Positions 30,983 to 41,641 of a stretch of 64,000 nucleotides of DNA are shown here, piece after piece (positions within the stretch are counted from its first letter, which is position 1; each line of letters opens with the position of its first letter). This DNA is from a virus. The position numbers were made by a program, and so were the translations under genes. Below the pieces are notes generated by a model. The model ran no database searches and was not told where the DNA came from. It worked only from the letters and a program-made list of their open reading frames with translations. The stretch lies in the IMG/VR virus record IMGVR_UViG_3300045988_019695, positions 32,001 through 96,000 of that record; one strand, given 5' to 3'.

Positions 30983-31055
30983 TAGCCCCACTCCGTGTCC
31001 ATCGGAGACCTACTGTTTTAGAGACAGTTGTGCACAGGCGGTACACCATAGGGCA
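30983..31055 (-). tRNA. suppressor tRNA, anticodon CUA (reads TAG)
   Basis: 73 nt: TGCCCTA TG GTGT ACCGCCTGT GCAC A ACTGT CTCTAAA ACAGT AGGT CTCCG ATGGACA CGGAG TGGGGCT A. All four stems pair: the 5-bp anticodon and T stems are perfect, the D stem is 4 bp with one G-U, and the acceptor pairs 6 of 7. Loop CTCTAAA gives U33-CUA-A37. The D-loop lacks GG and the T-loop lacks TTC. Confidence 0.8.
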
Positions 31056-31060
31056 ATATA

Positions 31061-31135
31061 TGAGGACGCAGTGGAATCGAACCACTGTCTCTAAATCTTC
31101 AAATTTAGAAAGTTAACCATTACTACAACACCCTC
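31061..31135 (-). tRNA. tRNA-like gene with irregular anticodon arm (isotype undetermined)
   Basis: Good T-arm (AGTGG TTCGATT CCACT), a D-loop with GG and a G-U-rich acceptor. The anticodon helix TCTAAAT/ATTTAGA is 7 bp around a 6-nt loop TTGAAG (or 5 bp with the 8-nt loop TTTGAAGA), never the canonical 5+7. Confidence 0.5.
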
Positions 31136-31355: not shown

Positions 31356-31429
31356 GAGTCTATGCAGGAGTCGAACCTGCTAACTATTCCCTTTGTATCG
31401 GGCCGTCTTTACCGTTTGACTAATAGACT
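31356..31429 (-). tRNA. tRNA-like gene with degenerate anticodon stem (isotype undetermined)
   Basis: Perfect 7-bp acceptor (AGTCTAT/ATAGACT), canonical T-arm (GCAGG TTCGACT CCTGC) and a D-loop with GG. The anticodon region GGCCC GATACAAA GGGAA pairs only CCC/GGG around an 8-nt loop. Confidence 0.45.
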
Positions 31430-32800: not shown

Positions 32801-33211
32801 TTACTTCTTCAATCCTTTAAGGTACTCAAGTAACTTAATCATGTTTCTCAATACTGTTTCCTTCTCAACAAGCAAACACTGAGGTGTATTCTCATCAGAC
32901 TTTTCCTTAATGGTGCAAAGCTCATTGTTGTATTCGTTGAGCTTATTATCTATCTCATCAAAGATATTTACAAATCTCTTTTTCTCATCAACTTCCTCAA
33001 CATATCCATTATCGAGAAGCATCTTGGCATATTCCTTTGAGATTCTATAAACAGAATTATAAGAAGAAACAACCGTTGAATTATCTTCATTTGAGCTGTT
33101 ATGCTCTTCGTTATATACACTTTCGTACTGCTCAGTATCAGCGTTGTACTCAAATGTATCACCACTCTCCATTACGAAGAAAGGCTTAATAACCTTTAAA
33201 ATCTTTGTCAT
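32801..33211 (-). CDS. acidic hypothetical protein, first gene of the minus-strand block
   Basis: ORF 32801-33217. I prefer the ATG at 33209-33211 (MTKILKVIKPFF..). Confidence 0.5.
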   Translation of the reverse strand: MTKILKVIKPFFVMESGDTFEYNADTEQYESVYNEEHNSSNEDNSTVVSSYNSVYRISKEYAKMLLDNGYVEEVDEKKRFVNIFDEIDNKLNEYNNELCTIKEKSDENTPQCLLVEKETVLRNMIKLLEYLKGLKK

Positions 33212-33217
33212 ATCCAA

Positions 33218-33502
33218 TTGCTTTTATTGTTTTACGCTGCCATAACGAAATAATTTTCAAAAAGGTTGCAAATGTGGTATAAATTTTGTAAAAACAGCAA
33301 TTTTCCTACAAATATGCAACTTTTTCAGCTTTTTTACGTTAGGGGGATAGTAGAGGGTTAGTCAGACTAAGAACCCTTTCTCTTATATATTCTCTTTAGG
33401 AGATCTACTTTAGTAGTACAGCTATTACAGTATAGTAAGACTATATAGTATAGTAGAGCTATATATAAGTTTAGTAAGAATAGTAAGACTAATAAGAATA
33501 GT
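33218..33502. promoter_or_regulatory. divergent control region between the late and early blocks
   Basis: 285 nt without an ORF. It holds the near-palindromic hairpin GGGTTAGTC A GACTAAGAACCC (about 33347-33375) and a run of TAGTAAGA-type direct repeats (about 33408-33502). Confidence 0.5.
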
Positions 33503-33898
33503 ATGGATAAAAAGAAGTGCATAATAGACGAATATAAAACAGTATACGGATTTAGTTTATTCGTTATAGTTAACCCAGATAAGTCTATAATAGATAAAAG
33601 ATTTAGCTTTAGAGATGATGATACATCTATAATTGATGATGAGTGGGCTAATTATACAGCATATACTACAAGAGGAGCGTATGATAAATTGGCTGACGAA
33701 GACTGTGAAATTATAGTAATAAACAAGTTAAAGAACACAAGTAACGATATAAATACCTTTGCACATGAGTCATTTCATGCAGCTGTAGACATACTAGAAG
33801 CATGTCATATCAAGTTATCTGAGGATACAAATGAGGTATTTGCATACTTAATTGGGTACTTTACAGAGTGTGTAAACAAAACAGCAAGTAAGGTATGA
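33503..33898 (+). CDS. small HExxH zinc-metallopeptidase-like protein (131 aa)
   Basis: Motif TFAHESFHAAVDILEACH, with a downstream EVFAYLIGYF segment. Confidence 0.45.
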   Translation: MDKKKCIIDEYKTVYGFSLFVIVNPDKSIIDKRFSFRDDDTSIIDDEWANYTAYTTRGAYDKLADEDCEIIVINKLKNTSNDINTFAHESFHAAVDILEACHIKLSEDTNEVFAYLIGYFTECVNKTASKV

Positions 33899-33909
33899 AC
33901 TAGTTTGAG

Positions 33910-34365
33910 ATGAGCGCTGTACTATATTATGCCGACTTCTTATCTCTACAATACTAGAATAAGCCATGTACAGAATAGTGCAAATACTTCTTTATACATG
34001 GAGCACCTGTAAATATAGCATATATTGTAGAGTAGGATCCAGTATATGATGTAGACAACCAATGGTTTTAGAAGAGCCTTAAAGAGTATAGTATGCTAAA
34101 GCATAAATTTGGCGAAGATGGTGCTATGAGCTTTATCAAGAACCTATGTAATCTTGGTGTGGCAGGGTCTGTAAATGCTACACAAATGATGAAGTACATA
34201 CATAGATATGACGACAAATAGGAGCGAGATAAAGCATTTAGAGCGTTTAAATTTAACAGATCAAAGAAGAAATACACGCATTTAACACGTAACGACGATG
34301 GTGAAATTATAGAGGAAGAGTGCACAAAATACGTAGCCCATGCTGAGCGAAATAGCAAAAGATAA
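33910..34365 (+). CDS. DUF4065/Panacea (SocA/GepA-like) domain protein, TAG-recoded (151 aa, 5 in-frame TAG)
   Basis: Frame scanned: 5 TAG, no TAA/TGA until TAA 34363. The N-terminus MSAVLYYADFLSLQYQNKPCTEQCKYFFIHGAPV resembles the KLLYxADF..Y....GPV signature. The domain call is from memory and not verified. Confidence 0.45.
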
Positions 34366-34445
34366 AGAATATTTAAGAGCTGCTGAGATAATACAGAGAG
34401 CTGAAAAACACGGCAGAATGTTAGGATTTTACGAACCAGATAAAG

Positions 34446-34550
34446 ATGAATCCATTTGATATAATATTTATGTTTTTAATACTTCCAATGTCGGCCGTTA
34501 CAGTCGGTTGGATAATACTTAAAGGAGCAAGTGACGATGGGAAAAATTAG
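34446..34550 (+). CDS. very small membrane peptide (34 aa)
   Basis: MNPFDIIFMFLILPMSAVTVGWIILKGASDDGKN; TAG followed by TAA. Confidence 0.3.
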   Translation: MNPFDIIFMFLILPMSAVTVGWIILKGASDDGKN

Positions 34551-34941
34551 TAAATACAGCAATTTGTACGATAAAGATGGTAACTTCTTGCATAAGCCAG
34601 GAAATTATTCAATTGAAGAACTTGAGAAGCTTGTAGACACACTTGACAAAAACTCTAGAGAGTTTGCAAGTGCTACAGCGATCCTTATGCACATGTACGA
34701 GCAAAAAGGTAATCCTCATAGAGATAAACTTATACAAAAGCTTATTGAGCAGTCTAAAACAAAGACTACTAAAGCTGAGGTTATAAATGCTTTAAAAGAT
34801 ATAAACATTAAAGATGAAGAGACAGGAAAAAATGGATCCAGCACAGAGGGACGCATACCAGATACTTCTGAAAGAGCTGGAGAGCTGGGGATAGGAAGCG
34901 GAACCAACGAGACAGATACTACAATTAGCACTGCAGCTTGA
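34537..34941 (+). CDS. hypothetical protein (134 aa)
   Basis: Track ORF 34531-34941. The ATG at 34537 gives MGKISKYSNLYDKDGNF. Confidence 0.5.
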   Translation: MGKISKYSNLYDKDGNFLHKPGNYSIEELEKLVDTLDKNSREFASATAILMHMYEQKGNPHRDKLIQKLIEQSKTKTTKAEVINALKDINIKDEETGKNGSSTEGRIPDTSERAGELGIGSGTNETDTTISTAA

Positions 34942-35029
34942 TGAAAAAGGAGAGTTCTACAAATTTATAGAAGTATTCGGGGATATAAGAAGTTATTGTC
35001 AATTAGATTAAAGATTGCTAATAAGGAAA

Positions 35030-36663: not shown

Positions 36664-37612
36664 CTAGCTTGCATCGTAGCGCCCTCGTGGCGCTACCTTG
36701 CTTCTTTGACAAATGCAACTCGCTTCGCTCAGACATCAGCTTAAAGCTTGCTTAGAGCTTGCCAAAGAAAGGAGATGGCAAGATACACAGGTGAAATTTC
36801 AGATAGAACAGATAGATAATATAAAACATAATAAAGAAGTAATCCTTGATTGAAAATTCAATATATGATTGCACAATATGCTCATTAATTTAGGGTTATT
36901 TAATTGCTAAGCGTAGCACAATAAGCGTGGATACATATCACAGTCTGTGAAGATAGTGGTATGTTTATTTTAAACTCAGCTAGGGAGAGTCTAACATAAT
37001 CACTGATGAGACCTAGGCGAAACTACACGTTGCATCATAGTGTAGTCTGATTAATTACTCAAAAGCGCAAATAGACCTCACAATACAATGGTCTGTGAAG
37101 ATAGTTGTATTGAACCGTTATCTCATGCGGTATATAAACTAGGATGACGGAGCGCCTACGCTAACGTGATAAATCGTAGGCAGTAATGTGGCAAGACATG
37201 GTCCCAAGCCCATGCACTACAACACGTGCTTATGGTACTTGCAAAGCTATAAGAGGTTCGCTTGTAGGACACAGAGGGTTAAATAGTAGTATTACATGTA
37301 TGCTGAGAAGAGACGTACAGCCTGCTTGCAAGAGGTGCTTCGTGAAATGCAATCTCTTCTCTATGACAATCCGAAGAGACGGATAGTGGTTATTATACGC
37401 TTACTGAAGTAAGAGGGTATACTATGCACGAATTCATATAAGGATATTGTGCTTGGCTATATAAAGTGCACACATAGCGACGGTTCGAGTCCAGTAACCA
37501 CTCTACCCTATCATGTTTTTTAGTTACAATTTTAGTCCATTTGGCATGGGTACATTGGTTCGTGAGAATAGATGTACCATTTTGATGATTATTAATCAAA
37601 CTAATATATATT
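36664..37612 (+). ncRNA. 949-nt ORF-free structured region (candidate ncRNA or long leader)
   Basis: Stops occur in all frames. It starts with the hairpin GTAGCGCC CTCGT GGCGCTAC. The 20-nt direct repeat GTCTGTGAAGATAGT(G/T)GTAT lies at 36943-36962 and 37091-37110, with a third partial copy near 37375. It ends with a GGTTCGAGTCC T-loop-like motif near 37486. Confidence 0.4.
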
Positions 37613-39934: not shown

Positions 39935-40207
39935 ATGGCAAAACGTAGAAAGAATGGACAGATGTCTGATAGCGAATTAGAGACCAGACGTCATCACGCA
40001 TCATTGCGTAGACTTAAAGTGTATTGTAATGATGTAAATGTAGAGTTAAAAGACTACAAATCTGCAGATCCTGATGATATGTGTATATTATCATTAGATG
40101 ATGTAGATCTTGGATCTAGAAAGAATTATTTAACAGTAGATAATGATTCATGGTTCGTTAGTGAAGACGACTATGATGAAATATCTCAAACAGCATTATA
40201 TATATGA
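39935..40207 (+). CDS. hypothetical protein (90 aa)
   Basis: ATG 39935 inside track ORF 39920-40207. Confidence 0.45.
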   Translation: MAKRRKNGQMSDSELETRRHHASLRRLKVYCNDVNVELKDYKSADPDDMCILSLDDVDLGSRKNYLTVDNDSWFVSEDDYDEISQTALYI

Positions 40208-40407
40208 AACGAGATTGTGAAGAATTGATTATCTCGATAATGTTGATATTCTTTTCTGGATTCCCTCTTATTGAGATACTCTCAAAAAGCTTAGTTATTG
40301 ATCAGGTTAGTAACTTCTCATTGATAGTTATTGTAATTTGGTTAGTAATAATTCTGATCTCCAGTATAATATATTTCGTAACTTACTGGATGGAAAAATT
40401 TGATTAG
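40204..40407 (+). CDS. small two-helix membrane protein (67 aa)
   Basis: Hydrophobic segments IISIMLIFFSGFPLIEIL and LIVIVIWLVIILISSIIYFV. It is followed by the hairpin GGGGCAGT TTAT ACTGTCCCC. Confidence 0.5.
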   Translation: MKRDCEELIISIMLIFFSGFPLIEILSKSLVIDQVSNFSLIVIVIWLVIILISSIIYFVTYWMEKFD

Positions 40408-40582
40408 TTGCATTTCAAGGGGGCAGTTTATACTGTCCCCGAGATTTATTAGGTTAGAGGCCTACATAACAGTTCAAGTCTGTATAAAATCACAAGCTGG
40501 AGAGCTTCGTACTTCGTTATCGTCACAGATCTTTTAACAGTTTTCTAAGGTTGACGTAAAACACAACATGAAACTGTTATTT

Positions 40583-40656
40583 GGACTTGTAGCTCAGTAG
40601 GTTAGAGCAACAGACTCATAATCTGGAGGTCCTAGGTTCAAACCCTAGCTGGTCCA
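40583..40656 (+). tRNA. tRNA with CAT anticodon (elongator Met or Ile-lysidine type)
   Basis: GGACTTG TA GCTC AGTAGGTTA GAGC A ACAGA CTCATAA TCTGG AGGTC CTAGG TTCAAAC CCTAG CTGGTCC A. The cloverleaf is canonical. Confidence 0.85.
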
Positions 40657-40727
40657 CAAAAGATGATTCCGTGAATCTTTAAAACCCGGATAGTTAACAT
40701 TTGTTGAATCTCTAATAAATTATCAAA

Positions 40728-41219
40728 ATGAAGAGATTATTTGAAAAGCTTAGCATGTGCTTAATCATGCTTATTGCAGCTATCGCAGTGTCATCATGTG
40801 ACTATGTGAAGCAGACAAAGAGTGAAATCAGACACGATGATTCACTCATGGTATCCAAGATGATGCAGGAAATTAGCAATCCTGCGTTCAATAACTATGC
40901 TGATGCTTTGGTGTATCAGAAAGCAGAAGGCAAGTGGAGACATCAAGACTCAGTGTTCTTAAGCATACCTGAAAAGGTTATGCGTGATGTAGTATCAGTC
41001 TTAGAGAAATCTGGGAAACCGGTTACTAAGATAGATATAGCTAATGAGTTTGAGATGAACAAGCGTGTATATTTGAATCTGCCTGACAAGCCGGATTTAT
41101 ATCAAGCTATTACTCCTCCTGATGTCCCGAACACAGAAGTCGTTGACACAATTATTGATGGCAAGCATGTGCAGGTGATACAGTCCTCCAGTACTAACAT
41201 AATGCCAAAGGAGGATTAG
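40728..41219 (+). CDS. lipoprotein (163 aa)
   Basis: Signal peptide with lipobox AIAVSSC. It ends in TAG, with a TGA one codon later. Confidence 0.6.
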   Translation: MKRLFEKLSMCLIMLIAAIAVSSCDYVKQTKSEIRHDDSLMVSKMMQEISNPAFNNYADALVYQKAEGKWRHQDSVFLSIPEKVMRDVVSVLEKSGKPVTKIDIANEFEMNKRVYLNLPDKPDLYQAITPPDVPNTEVVDTIIDGKHVQVIQSSSTNIMPKED

Positions 41220-41221
41220 CT

Positions 41222-41641
41222 ATGAAGCGATTTATCATTATTTCTTACGATGGTTCAAATTTGAATTCATCCGAAGTTTTGGCAATAGCTTCACAGCTGA
41301 AGACTATTAAGCCTAATGTTGAAAATATCCATGCATCTACAATGGATGAAACAGAAGTAAATTCTGTTATTGTAAAGCATGCAGAAAGTAAGAATGCTAC
41401 AGAATTATCTGTCGTAGAATCTGCATGTATCTATGTAAAAGAGAAATTTGGCAAGTATTTCAACTCCAAGATGAAGTTGTTGCTTGCATTGTCAGAGGCT
41501 ATAAATGACGAGCCTAACAACGAGTCTCTTACAAATGCTATTAAGGTTATATCTTGTGGTGTAAGTAAAAGAATGCGTGATTCTTACGGTATTTCTACCG
41601 ATGTTGTTTATGTATTTAAAACAGTTCAAGATAACATGTAA
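41222..41641 (+). CDS. hypothetical protein (139 aa)
   Basis: Uninterrupted ORF 2 nt after the upstream stop. Confidence 0.5.
   Translation: MKRFIIISYDGSNLNSSEVLAIASQLKTIKPNVENIHASTMDETEVNSVIVKHAESKNATELSVVESACIYVKEKFGKYFNSKMKLLLALSEAINDEPNNESLTNAIKVISCGVSKRMRDSYGISTDVVYVFKTVQDNM

Follow-up and report, generated by a model that had tools for sequence, protein, structure and literature searches.

A TAG-free HExxH gene overlaps a TAG-recoded gene where the standard-code block of a gut crAss-like phage begins

An overlapping gene pair with contrasting use of TAG

The window, that is the whole stretch of 64,000 nucleotides analysed here, belongs to a gut crAss-like phage of the Oafivirinae (Suoliviridae) in which TAG is recoded to glutamine. 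Its plus strand is probably the early strand, judging by orientation and by gene content, namely the replication module. The standard-code block on this strand is headed, as the earlier note had recognized, by a pair of small genes. Gene 1 (33503-33898, plus strand) is a TAG-free open reading frame for 131 amino acids with an HESFH motif at residues 88-92 and encodes a putative zincin-type metallopeptidase. Gene 2 (33895-34365, plus strand) encodes 156 amino acids, contains six in-frame TAGs read as glutamine and represents a family specific for crAss-like phages (Oafivirinae). A gap of 12 nt had originally been placed between the two genes; they actually overlap by 4 nt, the ATG of gene 2 lying over the TGA stop of gene 1 in an ATGA sequence (33895-33898, plus strand). 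Such an arrangement is typical of translational coupling. The start of gene 2 was set at the ATG at position 33895 because the N-terminus MN.[FI]E is conserved throughout the family, with N2 and E5 nearly invariant; the same alignment rules out a start at 33910. The recoded gene formerly outlined at 33910-34365 is real, with an earlier start and six TAGs instead of five. These lie between 33901 and 34221 on the plus strand (first nucleotides at 33901, 33955, 33976, 34033, 34069 and 34219) and correspond to codons 3, 21, 28, 47, 59 and 109, the first of them already at the third codon (33901-33903).

Gene 2 is a real, conserved and heavily TAG-recoded gene. A given frame has a probability of about 7e-4 of running for 157 codons without TAA or TGA, and between positions 33500 and 64000 gene 2 is the sole plus-strand frame that is 150 codons or longer and holds five or more TAGs; shuffled sequences lead one to expect 0.095 such frames. 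In comparison with relatives the TAG-joined frame exhibits dN/dS values of 0.03-0.07, the lowest among the six frames; the minus-strand reading frames 34068-34358 and 33940-34260, considered as the true genes in its place, were rejected on account of their worse dN/dS. Both cr7_1 and cr124_1 share each of the six TAGs, and an AF2 model of a 92%-identical proxy attains a pLDDT of 87.9. An exhaustive profile search of 1.84e9 representative proteins returned 90 matches, all of which are members of the same family or TAG-split fragments thereof. With the frame conserved under such constraint and 147 homologs found, the possibility that the region is non-coding, raised at the outset, no longer holds.

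Within the window, TAG accounts for six of the nine glutamine codons in gene 2, as against none of the 214 in a set of 35 further plus-strand genes (Fisher p = 5e-10) and 141 of 447 in the late minus-strand genes. The resulting share of 0.67 for gene 2 compares with up to 0.62-0.75 in the most strongly recoded late genes. Gene 2 has the properties of a phage gene recoded according to code 15 (TAG to glutamine), the suppressor being putative. Its description as the only TAG-recoded gene of the plus strand is essentially borne out, with one possible exception: a small plus-strand candidate at 40204-40548 carries two conserved TAGs and, over 171 nt, shows a dN/dS of 0.12 in frame; it could represent another such gene. 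Three further TAG-bearing frames on this strand (47590-47898, 59719-59943 and 36951-37407) were discarded as recoded genes, as they lack in-frame constraint. TAG apparently serves as the stop codon in two plus-strand genes, and each remaining plus-strand CDS in the annotation of cr7_1 has a TAG count of 0 or 1.

Upstream of the pair, a divergent intergenic region (33218-33502), presumed to be a promoter region, separates gene 1 from leftward-oriented TAG-free genes, the first of which is a DUF7399 gene (32801-33217, leftward). Four 9-nt repeats of TAAGNNTAG occupy positions 33466-33501 immediately 5' of the gene 1 ATG. A scan for sigma-70 consensus promoters and for terminators was uninformative for a Bacteroidota-type host. 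The leftward TAG-free genes are followed downstream by a tRNA cluster, whose last element (30983-31055, minus strand) is a putative amber suppressor tRNA. This tRNA-like cloverleaf has a CUA anticodon, its D and T loops are non-canonical, and it is situated 2.4 kb from the gene pair, in a unit that diverges from the shared intergenic region. Its minimum free energy fold is a complete cloverleaf, and its 5' half and anticodon loop match the annotated tRNA-Gln (CTA) of cr7_1 and cr124_1; neither ARAGORN nor the Rfam tRNA model detected it.

We compared 83 related loci. In 72 of them gene 1 immediately precedes gene 2, with a spacing between -6 and +12 nt, and in five to six further loci it is found about 0.5 kb downstream of gene 2 on the same strand. 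The pairing is not obligatory: in L049, L099 and L100 gene 2 occurs without an adjacent gene 1, and in L048 and L050 an unrelated reading frame takes the upstream position. Assignment of this substitute as ParB-like on the basis of a DGYHR motif was dismissed for want of Pfam support. The pair shows the architecture of type II toxin-antitoxin loci (two small, co-oriented, adjacent and overlapping genes), with a partner that varies between lineages.

The contrast between a TAG-free gene 1 and a TAG-containing gene 2 is conserved across the Oafivirinae loci compared. Every TAG-recoded phage among them has one to nine TAGs in gene 2; only the standard-code relative L100 has none, and even the lightly recoded genomes L057 and L063 retain one. 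Gene 1 is without TAG in all but one locus. This lack of TAG is of limited statistical weight because glutamine codons are very few in gene 1, amounting to zero in the window and to 0-6 per ortholog. The TAGs of gene 2 fall in 31 separate columns of the alignment, a spread that implies they were gained more than once; other lineages often have Q, K or E at these positions. Members of the Burzaovirus-like group retain the TAG at codon 3, and many lineages have a single TAG, which comes late in the gene (codon 113, 116 or 125).

Predicted properties of the two proteins

The TAG-free gene with an HESFH motif is present as had been stated; "metallopeptidase-like" applies to it by motif and predicted topology. 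In an alignment of 29 sequences reaching down to 45% identity, H88, E89, H92, E111, C68, C101 and C123 are invariant, and more distant orthologs also carry the HExxH motif. In gene 1 both histidines and the glutamate of this motif are thus conserved, as is characteristic of zincins. Its AF2 model (pLDDT 91.3) consists of a beta-sheet (residues 7-73) followed by a helix with the HExxH motif (80-100) and a second helix (110-128), at the start of which E111, a candidate third metal ligand, is placed. This predicted topology resembles that of the small zincins, that is ImmA/IrrE (Peptidase_M78), SprT-like and DUF5700 proteins, in which a beta-sheet likewise precedes the long helix that bears HExxH and the next helix supplies a conserved glutamate about 19 residues past the second histidine. 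The gene 1 product is best described as a putative zincin-type protein with presumed peptidase activity. To our knowledge, three invariant cysteines are not a feature of M78.

The profile searches proposed for the peptidase clans gave recurrent matches of the gene 1 family to Peptidase_M78, albeit all of them below threshold (14 of 29 members, best E = 0.006); DUF5700 (7/29) and SprT-like (3/29) likewise matched at sub-threshold level. The gene 1 protein of the window has no match to PF06114, and none of the 29 members reaches the gathering score of that model. Gene 1 was assigned to phrog_1365 (E = 1.5e-12). Foldseek with the AF2 model revealed no significant match in the PDB, and the family profile produced chance-level matches only against PDB sequences. 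Unlike ImmA/IrrE, gene 1 is devoid of an HTH domain and of an obvious adjacent repressor substrate.

Gene 2 had been proposed to be DUF4065/Panacea-like. The profile comparisons are suggestive of this in so far as matches to PF13274, the model of this SocA-like antitoxin domain, are recurrent and colinear in the family (14 of 26 members, best member E = 0.002); they are all sub-threshold. For the window protein the score is 11.7-12.2 bits (E = 0.37-0.53); P0275 and P0305, two distant members, reach 17.8 and 18.6 bits (E = 0.006 and 0.004), and consensus sequences of the family attain 15-20.4 bits with E values down to 0.001. The latter maximum of 20.4 bits stays below the gathering score of 25.7 bits, which is thus unreached by any sequence of the family, and the positive control, phi52237 PanA, scores 65.8 bits. 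When the family was aligned with 12 genuine phage Panacea proteins by hhalign, a score of 20.5 with a probability of 1.2% over 28 columns resulted; a null obtained by column shuffling had a mean of 12.0 (sd 2.3), and one of 150 shuffles equalled or exceeded the observed score (z ~3.7). At low stringency the hhalign profile alignment is colinear across three motifs: LxxILYYADxLSL in gene 2 resembles LKLQKLLYYAxxxHL in Panacea proteins, YFxIHGxP[VI] resembles FEAWxHGPV, and GSVxAxQMLxYIH resembles GxxSAxELVxxTH. An hhalign comparison with the single phi52237 PanA sequence gave no match. All 12 Panacea proteins fall into phrog_1281 and phrog_10390, as opposed to none of 27 gene 2 family members, and gene 2 itself was not assigned to any PHROG family. 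The exhaustive profile search mentioned above provided no bridge to the large Panacea family, and NCBIfam and PADLOC searches yielded nothing meaningful.

The AF2 model of gene 2 comprises helices at residues 3-21, 56-72, 74-84, 95-103 and 108-124, an additional C-terminal hairpin and helix, and a small three-stranded sheet (30-34, 37-40 and 92-94), with the invariant P38 of the G-x-P-[VI] motif in the second strand. The predicted inventory of secondary structure is similar to that of PanA, and these elements appear to agree with the published description of the PanA fold (PMC8832971), a likeness drawn from that description. Structure prediction of the individual proteins, as had been suggested, yielded confident models of both genes and no Foldseek match for either: with gene 2 against PDB and BFVD, nothing was obtained at E < 0.3 except a 32-aa fragment of its own family. 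The family profile found PDB sequences at chance level only. RAD4 and RNase A were among the chance-level PDB matches from the two family profile searches. Taken as suggestive only, these likenesses may point to a distant Panacea-like fold.

Predicted translation of the pair before and after the code switch

With gene 2 full of TAGs and gene 1 free of them, the two cistrons are not translatable under the same conditions. Once an mRNA exists, gene 1 should be made by unmodified host ribosomes, as it lacks TAG. Ribosomes reinitiating at the gene 2 ATG would meet UAG at codon 3 and five further UAGs downstream, and the full-length protein would therefore arise only once a tRNA with a CUA anticodon suppresses UAG efficiently. 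The dependence of gene 2 on amber suppression follows directly from the sequence, provided that the host terminates at UAG, as it presumably does. On this premise the earlier note was right in suggesting that the two members become translatable at different times, gene 2 needing amber suppression and gene 1 not. The cassette is probably transcribed early, and the delay before synthesis of gene 2 may be short because the suppressor unit diverges from the same intergenic region.

We tentatively propose that overlapping cistrons are separated in time here by the genetic code and that the gene 2 product most likely acts on that of gene 1, a reading that we consider plausible while falling somewhat short of probable. 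Much as type II antitoxins or Panacea proteins do, the gene 2 protein would bind the gene 1 protein and neutralise or retarget it, a physical or functional interaction that we infer, and protease-like activity would thereby last only until the code switch.

It is also possible, if rather unlikely, that the two proteins are independent of each other, that gene 2 is needed or tolerated only after the switch, and that adjacency reflects operon packing; recoding would then time gene 2 itself. Gene 2 is indeed more widespread than gene 1, as seen from the loci in which it stands alone (L049, L099, L100), is separated from gene 1 by 0.5 kb or has another upstream neighbour (L048, L050), and its TAG share of 0.67 lies within the range of strongly recoded late genes. 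Borges et al. moreover reported four TAG-preferring families in crAss-like phages of about 105 kb, one of them of unknown function, and gene 2 might be this fourth family. On the other hand, the close junction, with genes overlapping by 4 nt or spaced by 1 nt, has been kept in 72 of 83 loci down to identities of about 45%, same-strand linkage persists even where the order has changed, and the recoding is common to no other gene of the block. An improbable explanation is action in cis, in which the stop at codon 3 leaves 470 nt untranslated and polarity, by Rho-type termination or mRNA decay, delays the downstream genes so that the product itself matters less. The conserved TAG at codon 3 in the Burzaovirus-like group and the position of the cassette as the first genes of the rightward block would suit such a role, as would the failure to find an intrinsic terminator on the plus strand from gene 1 to the next genes by the scan, which is uninformative for a Bacteroidota-type host. 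The dN/dS of gene 2 together with its confident fold nevertheless indicates that the product matters, most of the cistron would be translated in the many lineages whose only TAG is at codon 113, 116 or 125, and the strict absence of TAG from the downstream genes is what synthesis before the switch would predict.

Very improbable in our view is the absence of any regulation, with neutral TAGs in gene 2, a suppressor co-expressed from the divergent unit and gene 2 made about as early as its neighbours. The proximity of the CUA tRNA-like gene (2.4 kb), in a unit diverging from the shared intergenic region, speaks for this, and TAG positions that differ between lineages would be expected under neutral turnover too. 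Such tolerance should, however, extend to the plus-strand neighbours, yet the count there is 0/214 versus 6/9 in gene 2 (p = 5e-10), and the same contrast is seen in each of the recoded lineages examined, the lightly recoded ones among them.

A last idea, which we regard as extremely improbable, is that of a self-limiting code-switch module. An early zincin would cleave a host protein of translation termination or quality control, such as the UAG-reading factor RF1, and cleavage of RF1 would open UAG to the phage suppressor tRNA. Gene 2 would be completed only when read-through of UAG is efficient, would thus act as a sensor of the switch and would then shut the protease off. The coupling of a TAG-free with a TAG-rich gene, the TAG at codon 3 and the place beside the suppressor unit would fit such a module, and so would the restriction of the recoded form of gene 2 to recoded phages.

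Relation to recoded phages and to Panacea systems

In gut phages, among them crAss-like and Lak phages, the recoding of stop codons has been proposed to time late and lysis genes (Yutin et al. 2021, PMC7886860; Borges et al. preprint, 10.1101/2021.08.26.457843), and the reading of TAG as glutamine has been validated by proteomics (Peters et al. 2022, PMC9523058). The window phage shares with these phages the use of TAG for glutamine, a standard-code replication block, a recoded other block and a suppressor tRNA, here the putative one. In-frame stops that block translation until the code switch are part of the logic of recoded gut phages, and the same logic is proposed for gene 2. The closest specific precedent is a TGA-recoded homing endonuclease within an early gene of Agate phages (10.1101/2021.08.26.457843). 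The cassette would be a variant of the already known code-gated late expression. Unlike in the recoded gut-phage precedents, recoding affects one cistron that itself belongs to the beginning of a standard-code block, and the code boundary runs inside one pair of genes overlapping by 4 nt. We found no published description of this pair.

Several traits are shared with PanAT systems (Kurata et al. 2022, PMC8832971; Ernits et al. 2023, PMC10440598). With about 155 aa gene 2 is close in length to phi52237 PanA (157 aa), and PanAT systems are likewise bicistronic and overlapping with a variable partner, just as some lineages have a different upstream partner next to gene 2. In most Panacea systems the toxin gene comes first (78%; PMC10440598), and gene 1 is likewise upstream. 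The gene 2 family differs from PanAT in that it does not reach the Pfam threshold, gives a weak profile-profile signal and stays outside the Panacea PHROGs. The main text of the two PanAT papers (PMC8832971, PMC10440598) does not mention a zincin toxin partner. Since ImmA-type peptidases and Panacea are both antitoxin hubs in toxin-antitoxin networks and do not form a mutual pair (PMC10440598), the roles of the domains in the cassette would be off the usual pattern.

So far, the view of gut-phage recoding as a regulatory timer versus tolerated drift has been argued mainly from genome-wide correlations. The cassette provides a minimal natural test, that is one mRNA with overlapping cistrons that differ only in their need for amber suppression, and the contrast is kept throughout an entire subfamily of phages that abound in the human gut. 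Gene 2 could in addition serve as a natural reporter of the timing of the code switch. If it indeed neutralises gene 1, the two would form a toxin/neutraliser-type pair with a neutraliser gated by the genetic code; we know of no described case of a toxin-antitoxin neutraliser controlled by amber suppression. In public records gene 2 is truncated by standard-code annotation, as in the Bohxovirus record PV686213, where it is cut at 96 aa.

An overlapping gene pair at the boundary between two codes

The window comes from a crAss-like phage; at 33200-35000 it shares 83-84% identity with cr7_1 (NC_055895) and cr124_1 (NC_055899), both assigned to the genus Burzaovirus (Crassvirales, Suoliviridae, Oafivirinae). 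The minus-strand genes between 1 and about 31000 are large and rich in in-frame TAGs, which make up 141 of the 447 glutamine codons in the ORFs counted. From 33503 onward, the plus-strand block is the counterpart of the cr7_1 replication module (DNA polymerase, helicase, primase, RecA-like protein, exonuclease). At its head lies gene 1 (33503-33898, +), which is free of TAG and encodes a protein of 131 amino acids with HESFH at residues 88-92. Its TGA stop overlaps the ATG of the TAG-recoded gene 2 (33895-34365, +; 156 amino acids) in the sequence ATGA. The earlier note had gene 2 begin at 33910 and counted five TAGs. The family alignment corrects this to a start at 33895 and six TAGs (codons 3, 21, 28, 47, 59 and 109), because the N-terminus MN.[FI]E[LM] is conserved, with N2 and E5 nearly invariant, and leucine takes the place of the methionine at 33910 in most other lineages. 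The RefSeq orthologs from cr7_1 and cr124_1 are annotated in the same way, with the identical six TAGs.

That 33910-34365 might be non-coding had also been considered. Against five relatives, dN/dS in the TAG-joined frame is 0.03-0.07, the lowest of all six frames and that of a coding gene; the antisense frame sharing third codon positions has 0.09-0.18 and the remaining frames about 1 or more. The family comprises 147 homologs in a collection of 5.8 billion proteins. When 1.84 billion representative proteins were searched exhaustively with a profile, only 90 matches came back, all from this family, many of them fragments as cut at TAG by a standard-code gene caller. The standard-code public annotation of a Bohxovirus (PV686213.1, 1501-1791) likewise cuts the ortholog to 96 amino acids at an in-frame TAG.

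Within the window TAG provides six of the nine glutamine codons of gene 2 and none of the 214 in 35 other plus-strand genes (6914 codons; Fisher p = 5e-10). The cr7_1 annotation has zero or one TAG in its other plus-strand coding sequences, the single TAG, where present, lying at the gene end. Two plus-strand genes, 40719-41225 and 43801-44304, end in an apparent TAG stop followed by TAA 2 and 24 codons further on, respectively; they would acquire C-terminal extensions once the code is switched, and their cr7_1 counterparts are annotated as read through. The earlier note called all other plus-strand ORFs that it examined TAG-free, which holds for the 35 genes; a possible exception is a candidate ORF of 114 amino acids at 40204-40548 (+), just upstream of tRNA-Met (40583-40657) and unannotated in cr7_1. 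Its two in-frame TAGs are kept in cr7_1 and its in-frame dN/dS is 0.12 over 171 aligned nucleotides; recoding may therefore extend to this gene as well. The other TAG-bearing plus-strand ORF candidates in the window showed no in-frame constraint by dN/dS. A minus-strand island of TAG-containing ORFs (about 47400-49300; 47423-48001 with three TAGs, 47881-48549 with four) interrupts the plus-strand block; its counterpart in cr7_1 is the minus-strand gp52, with two TAGs.

Recoding of late genes is already known for crAss-like phages; for a boundary between codes that falls within two overlapping genes, where a standard-code block begins, we found no description in the literature. Borges et al. 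(preprint) mention, for crAss-like phages of about 105 kb, a fourth family that prefers TAG, left unnamed and "of unknown function", which could be gene 2.

Conservation of the pair and the nature of its products

Eighty viral loci encoding gene 2 relatives and two more distant loci were fetched for comparison; linkage is counted over 83 loci. Gene 2 carries one to nine in-frame TAGs in every TAG-recoded phage of the set and none in the standard-code relative L100. Two lightly recoded phages with a CUA tRNA and neighbouring large genes almost devoid of TAG (L057, L063) still retain one in gene 2. Among 65 distinct gene 2 proteins TAG is spread over 31 alignment columns; other lineages often have Q, K or E in these columns, in keeping with TAG read as glutamine and with repeated independent gains.

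Gene 1 lies directly upstream of gene 2 (-6 to +12 nt) in 72 of the 83 loci; in five or six it is found about 0.5 kb downstream, again on the same strand, and L049, L099 and L100 lack it. In one lineage the partner is replaced at the same position by an unrelated ORF of about 130 amino acids with a DGYHR motif (L048 9613-10005; L050 9562-10005), for which Pfam gave no match. Gene 1 is without TAG in all loci but one; as its orthologs have only zero to six glutamine codons (none in the window), this carries limited statistical weight.

Across 29 gene 1 sequences with identities down to 45%, H88, E89, H92, E111, C68, C101 and C123 are invariant. The AF2 model (pLDDT 91.3) comprises a beta-sheet, a helix at 80-100 bearing HExxH and a helix at 110-128 starting at E111, a predicted layout that would be expected of a small zincin. 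Sub-threshold Pfam matches to Peptidase_M78 (ImmA/IrrE; 14 of 29 members), DUF5700 (7/29) and SprT-like (3/29) are weak family evidence. The protein matches phrog_1365, which has no assigned function, and Foldseek found no match for the model in the PDB.

For gene 2 the earlier note had proposed the antitoxin domain Panacea (DUF4065, PF13274). PF13274 matches recur in the family, none of them reaching the gathering score of 25.7: the window's gene 2 is below threshold (E = 0.37), 14 of 26 members match sub-threshold (best E = 0.002), the distant members P0275 and P0305 give E = 0.006 and 0.004, P0275 spanning profile positions 2-102 of 113, and consensus sequences reach E = 0.001 (20.4 bits). 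Twelve genuine Panacea proteins of phages, among them phi52237 PanA with its experimental validation, were combined into a profile. In hhalign this profile aligned with the family with a score of 20.5 over 28 columns and a probability of only 1.2%; when the columns were shuffled, one of 150 controls reached that score (null mean 12.0, sd 2.3). At low stringency the two are colinear over three motifs. The confident AF2 model of gene 2 (92%-identical proxy sequence; pLDDT 87.9, pTM 0.81) combines one long helix and further helices with a small sheet of three strands, the second of which holds the invariant proline of G-x-P-[VI]; this inventory fits the published description of PanA (PMC8832971). 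Foldseek searches of the PDB and BFVD found no match for it. All 12 genuine Panacea proteins fall into phrog_1281 and phrog_10390, whereas none of 27 gene 2 family members does. We hold homology to Panacea to be possible, about as likely as not, and membership in the Panacea family is not established.

Proposed translational gating and its alternatives

On one mRNA with a TAG-free first and a TAG-laden second cistron, an unmodified host could fully translate only the first, provided that it terminates at UAG, as hosts of recoded crAss-like phages are generally accepted to do (PMC7886860; Borges et al. preprint). Before amber suppression becomes efficient, translation of gene 2 would be halted by the UAG at codon 3 and by the five behind it. 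In the same publications recoding is proposed to time the late and lysis genes (PMC7886860; Borges et al. preprint), and a recoded homing endonuclease within an early gene is a similar case (Borges et al. preprint). That the six TAGs arose by neutral drift is unlikely since the neighbouring plus-strand genes have none in 214 glutamine codons. A gate acting purely in cis is likewise improbable because the gene 2 protein is strongly conserved and many lineages possess only a distal TAG.

The reading that we favour, tentatively, is that the gene 2 protein would act on the gene 1 protein. It draws on the conserved overlap with a TAG-free partner, on linkage that is kept when the order changes and on the Panacea-like hints. 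We rate it as somewhat less likely than not, since the interaction is inferred and gene 2 can exist without gene 1; that gene 2 encodes an independent protein needed late is in our view a little less probable again. Panacea and ImmA-type peptidases each serve as antitoxin hubs in toxin-antitoxin networks, and the order is toxin-first in 78% of Panacea systems (PMC10440598). The pairing of a zincin with Panacea would be a new combination, and control of a neutraliser through amber suppression would likewise be new.

Putative suppressor and neighbouring elements

A scan of the window with ARAGORN yielded no tRNA with a CUA anticodon. The relatives cr7_1 and cr124_1 have such a gene, a tRNA-Gln (anticodon CTA), flanked by the leftward TAG-free genes on one side and by the dUTPase gene on the other; the corresponding position here is occupied by a putative tRNA-like gene, also with CUA (30983-31055, -). 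Its 5' half and anticodon loop (CUCUAAA) are the same as in these relatives and its minimum-free-energy structure is a complete cloverleaf; both the D loop and the T loop (AUGGACA) depart from the canonical form, and a search with the Rfam tRNA model misses the gene even at E = 10. Yutin et al. (PMC7886860) discuss divergent suppressors that go undetected, and this gene may be one of them. A tRNA cluster, of which it is the last member, lies downstream of four or five leftward TAG-free genes; these start from the same intergenic region (33218-33502) as rightward genes 1 and 2. Two further odd tRNA-like genes belong to this cluster (31061-31135 and 31356-31429, both -): one has an 8-nt anticodon loop (Rfam 36.4 bits; ARAGORN 4-base anticodon 'tgaa'), the other an anticodon stem of only 3 bp (37.6 bits; uncalled by ARAGORN).

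The first leftward gene across the divergent region encodes a DUF7399 protein (32801-33217, -; PF24132, E = 8e-43). In L099 and L100, which are distant relatives, a DUF7399 gene closely follows the gene 2 homolog and shares its strand, so that the neighbourhood has been kept, though in rearranged form. Four tandem 9-nt units (TAAGNNTAG-like; 33466-33501, +) within the TAG/TAA-rich intergenic region abut the gene 1 ATG and may be a regulatory site.

Inside the replication-module block, Rfam identifies a permuted tmRNA (RF04321; 42974-43206, +; 56.5 bits, gathering score 47) that ARAGORN also calls (42944-43297) and that is annotated in cr7_1. Where a genome alters the meaning of a stop codon, an RNA for ribosome rescue encoded by the phage itself is of interest. 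A RAGATH-1 hammerhead ribozyme (RF03152; 36973-37052, +; 71.8 bits, gathering score 56.3) lies within about 0.9 kb (36700-37600) devoid of a convincing ORF.
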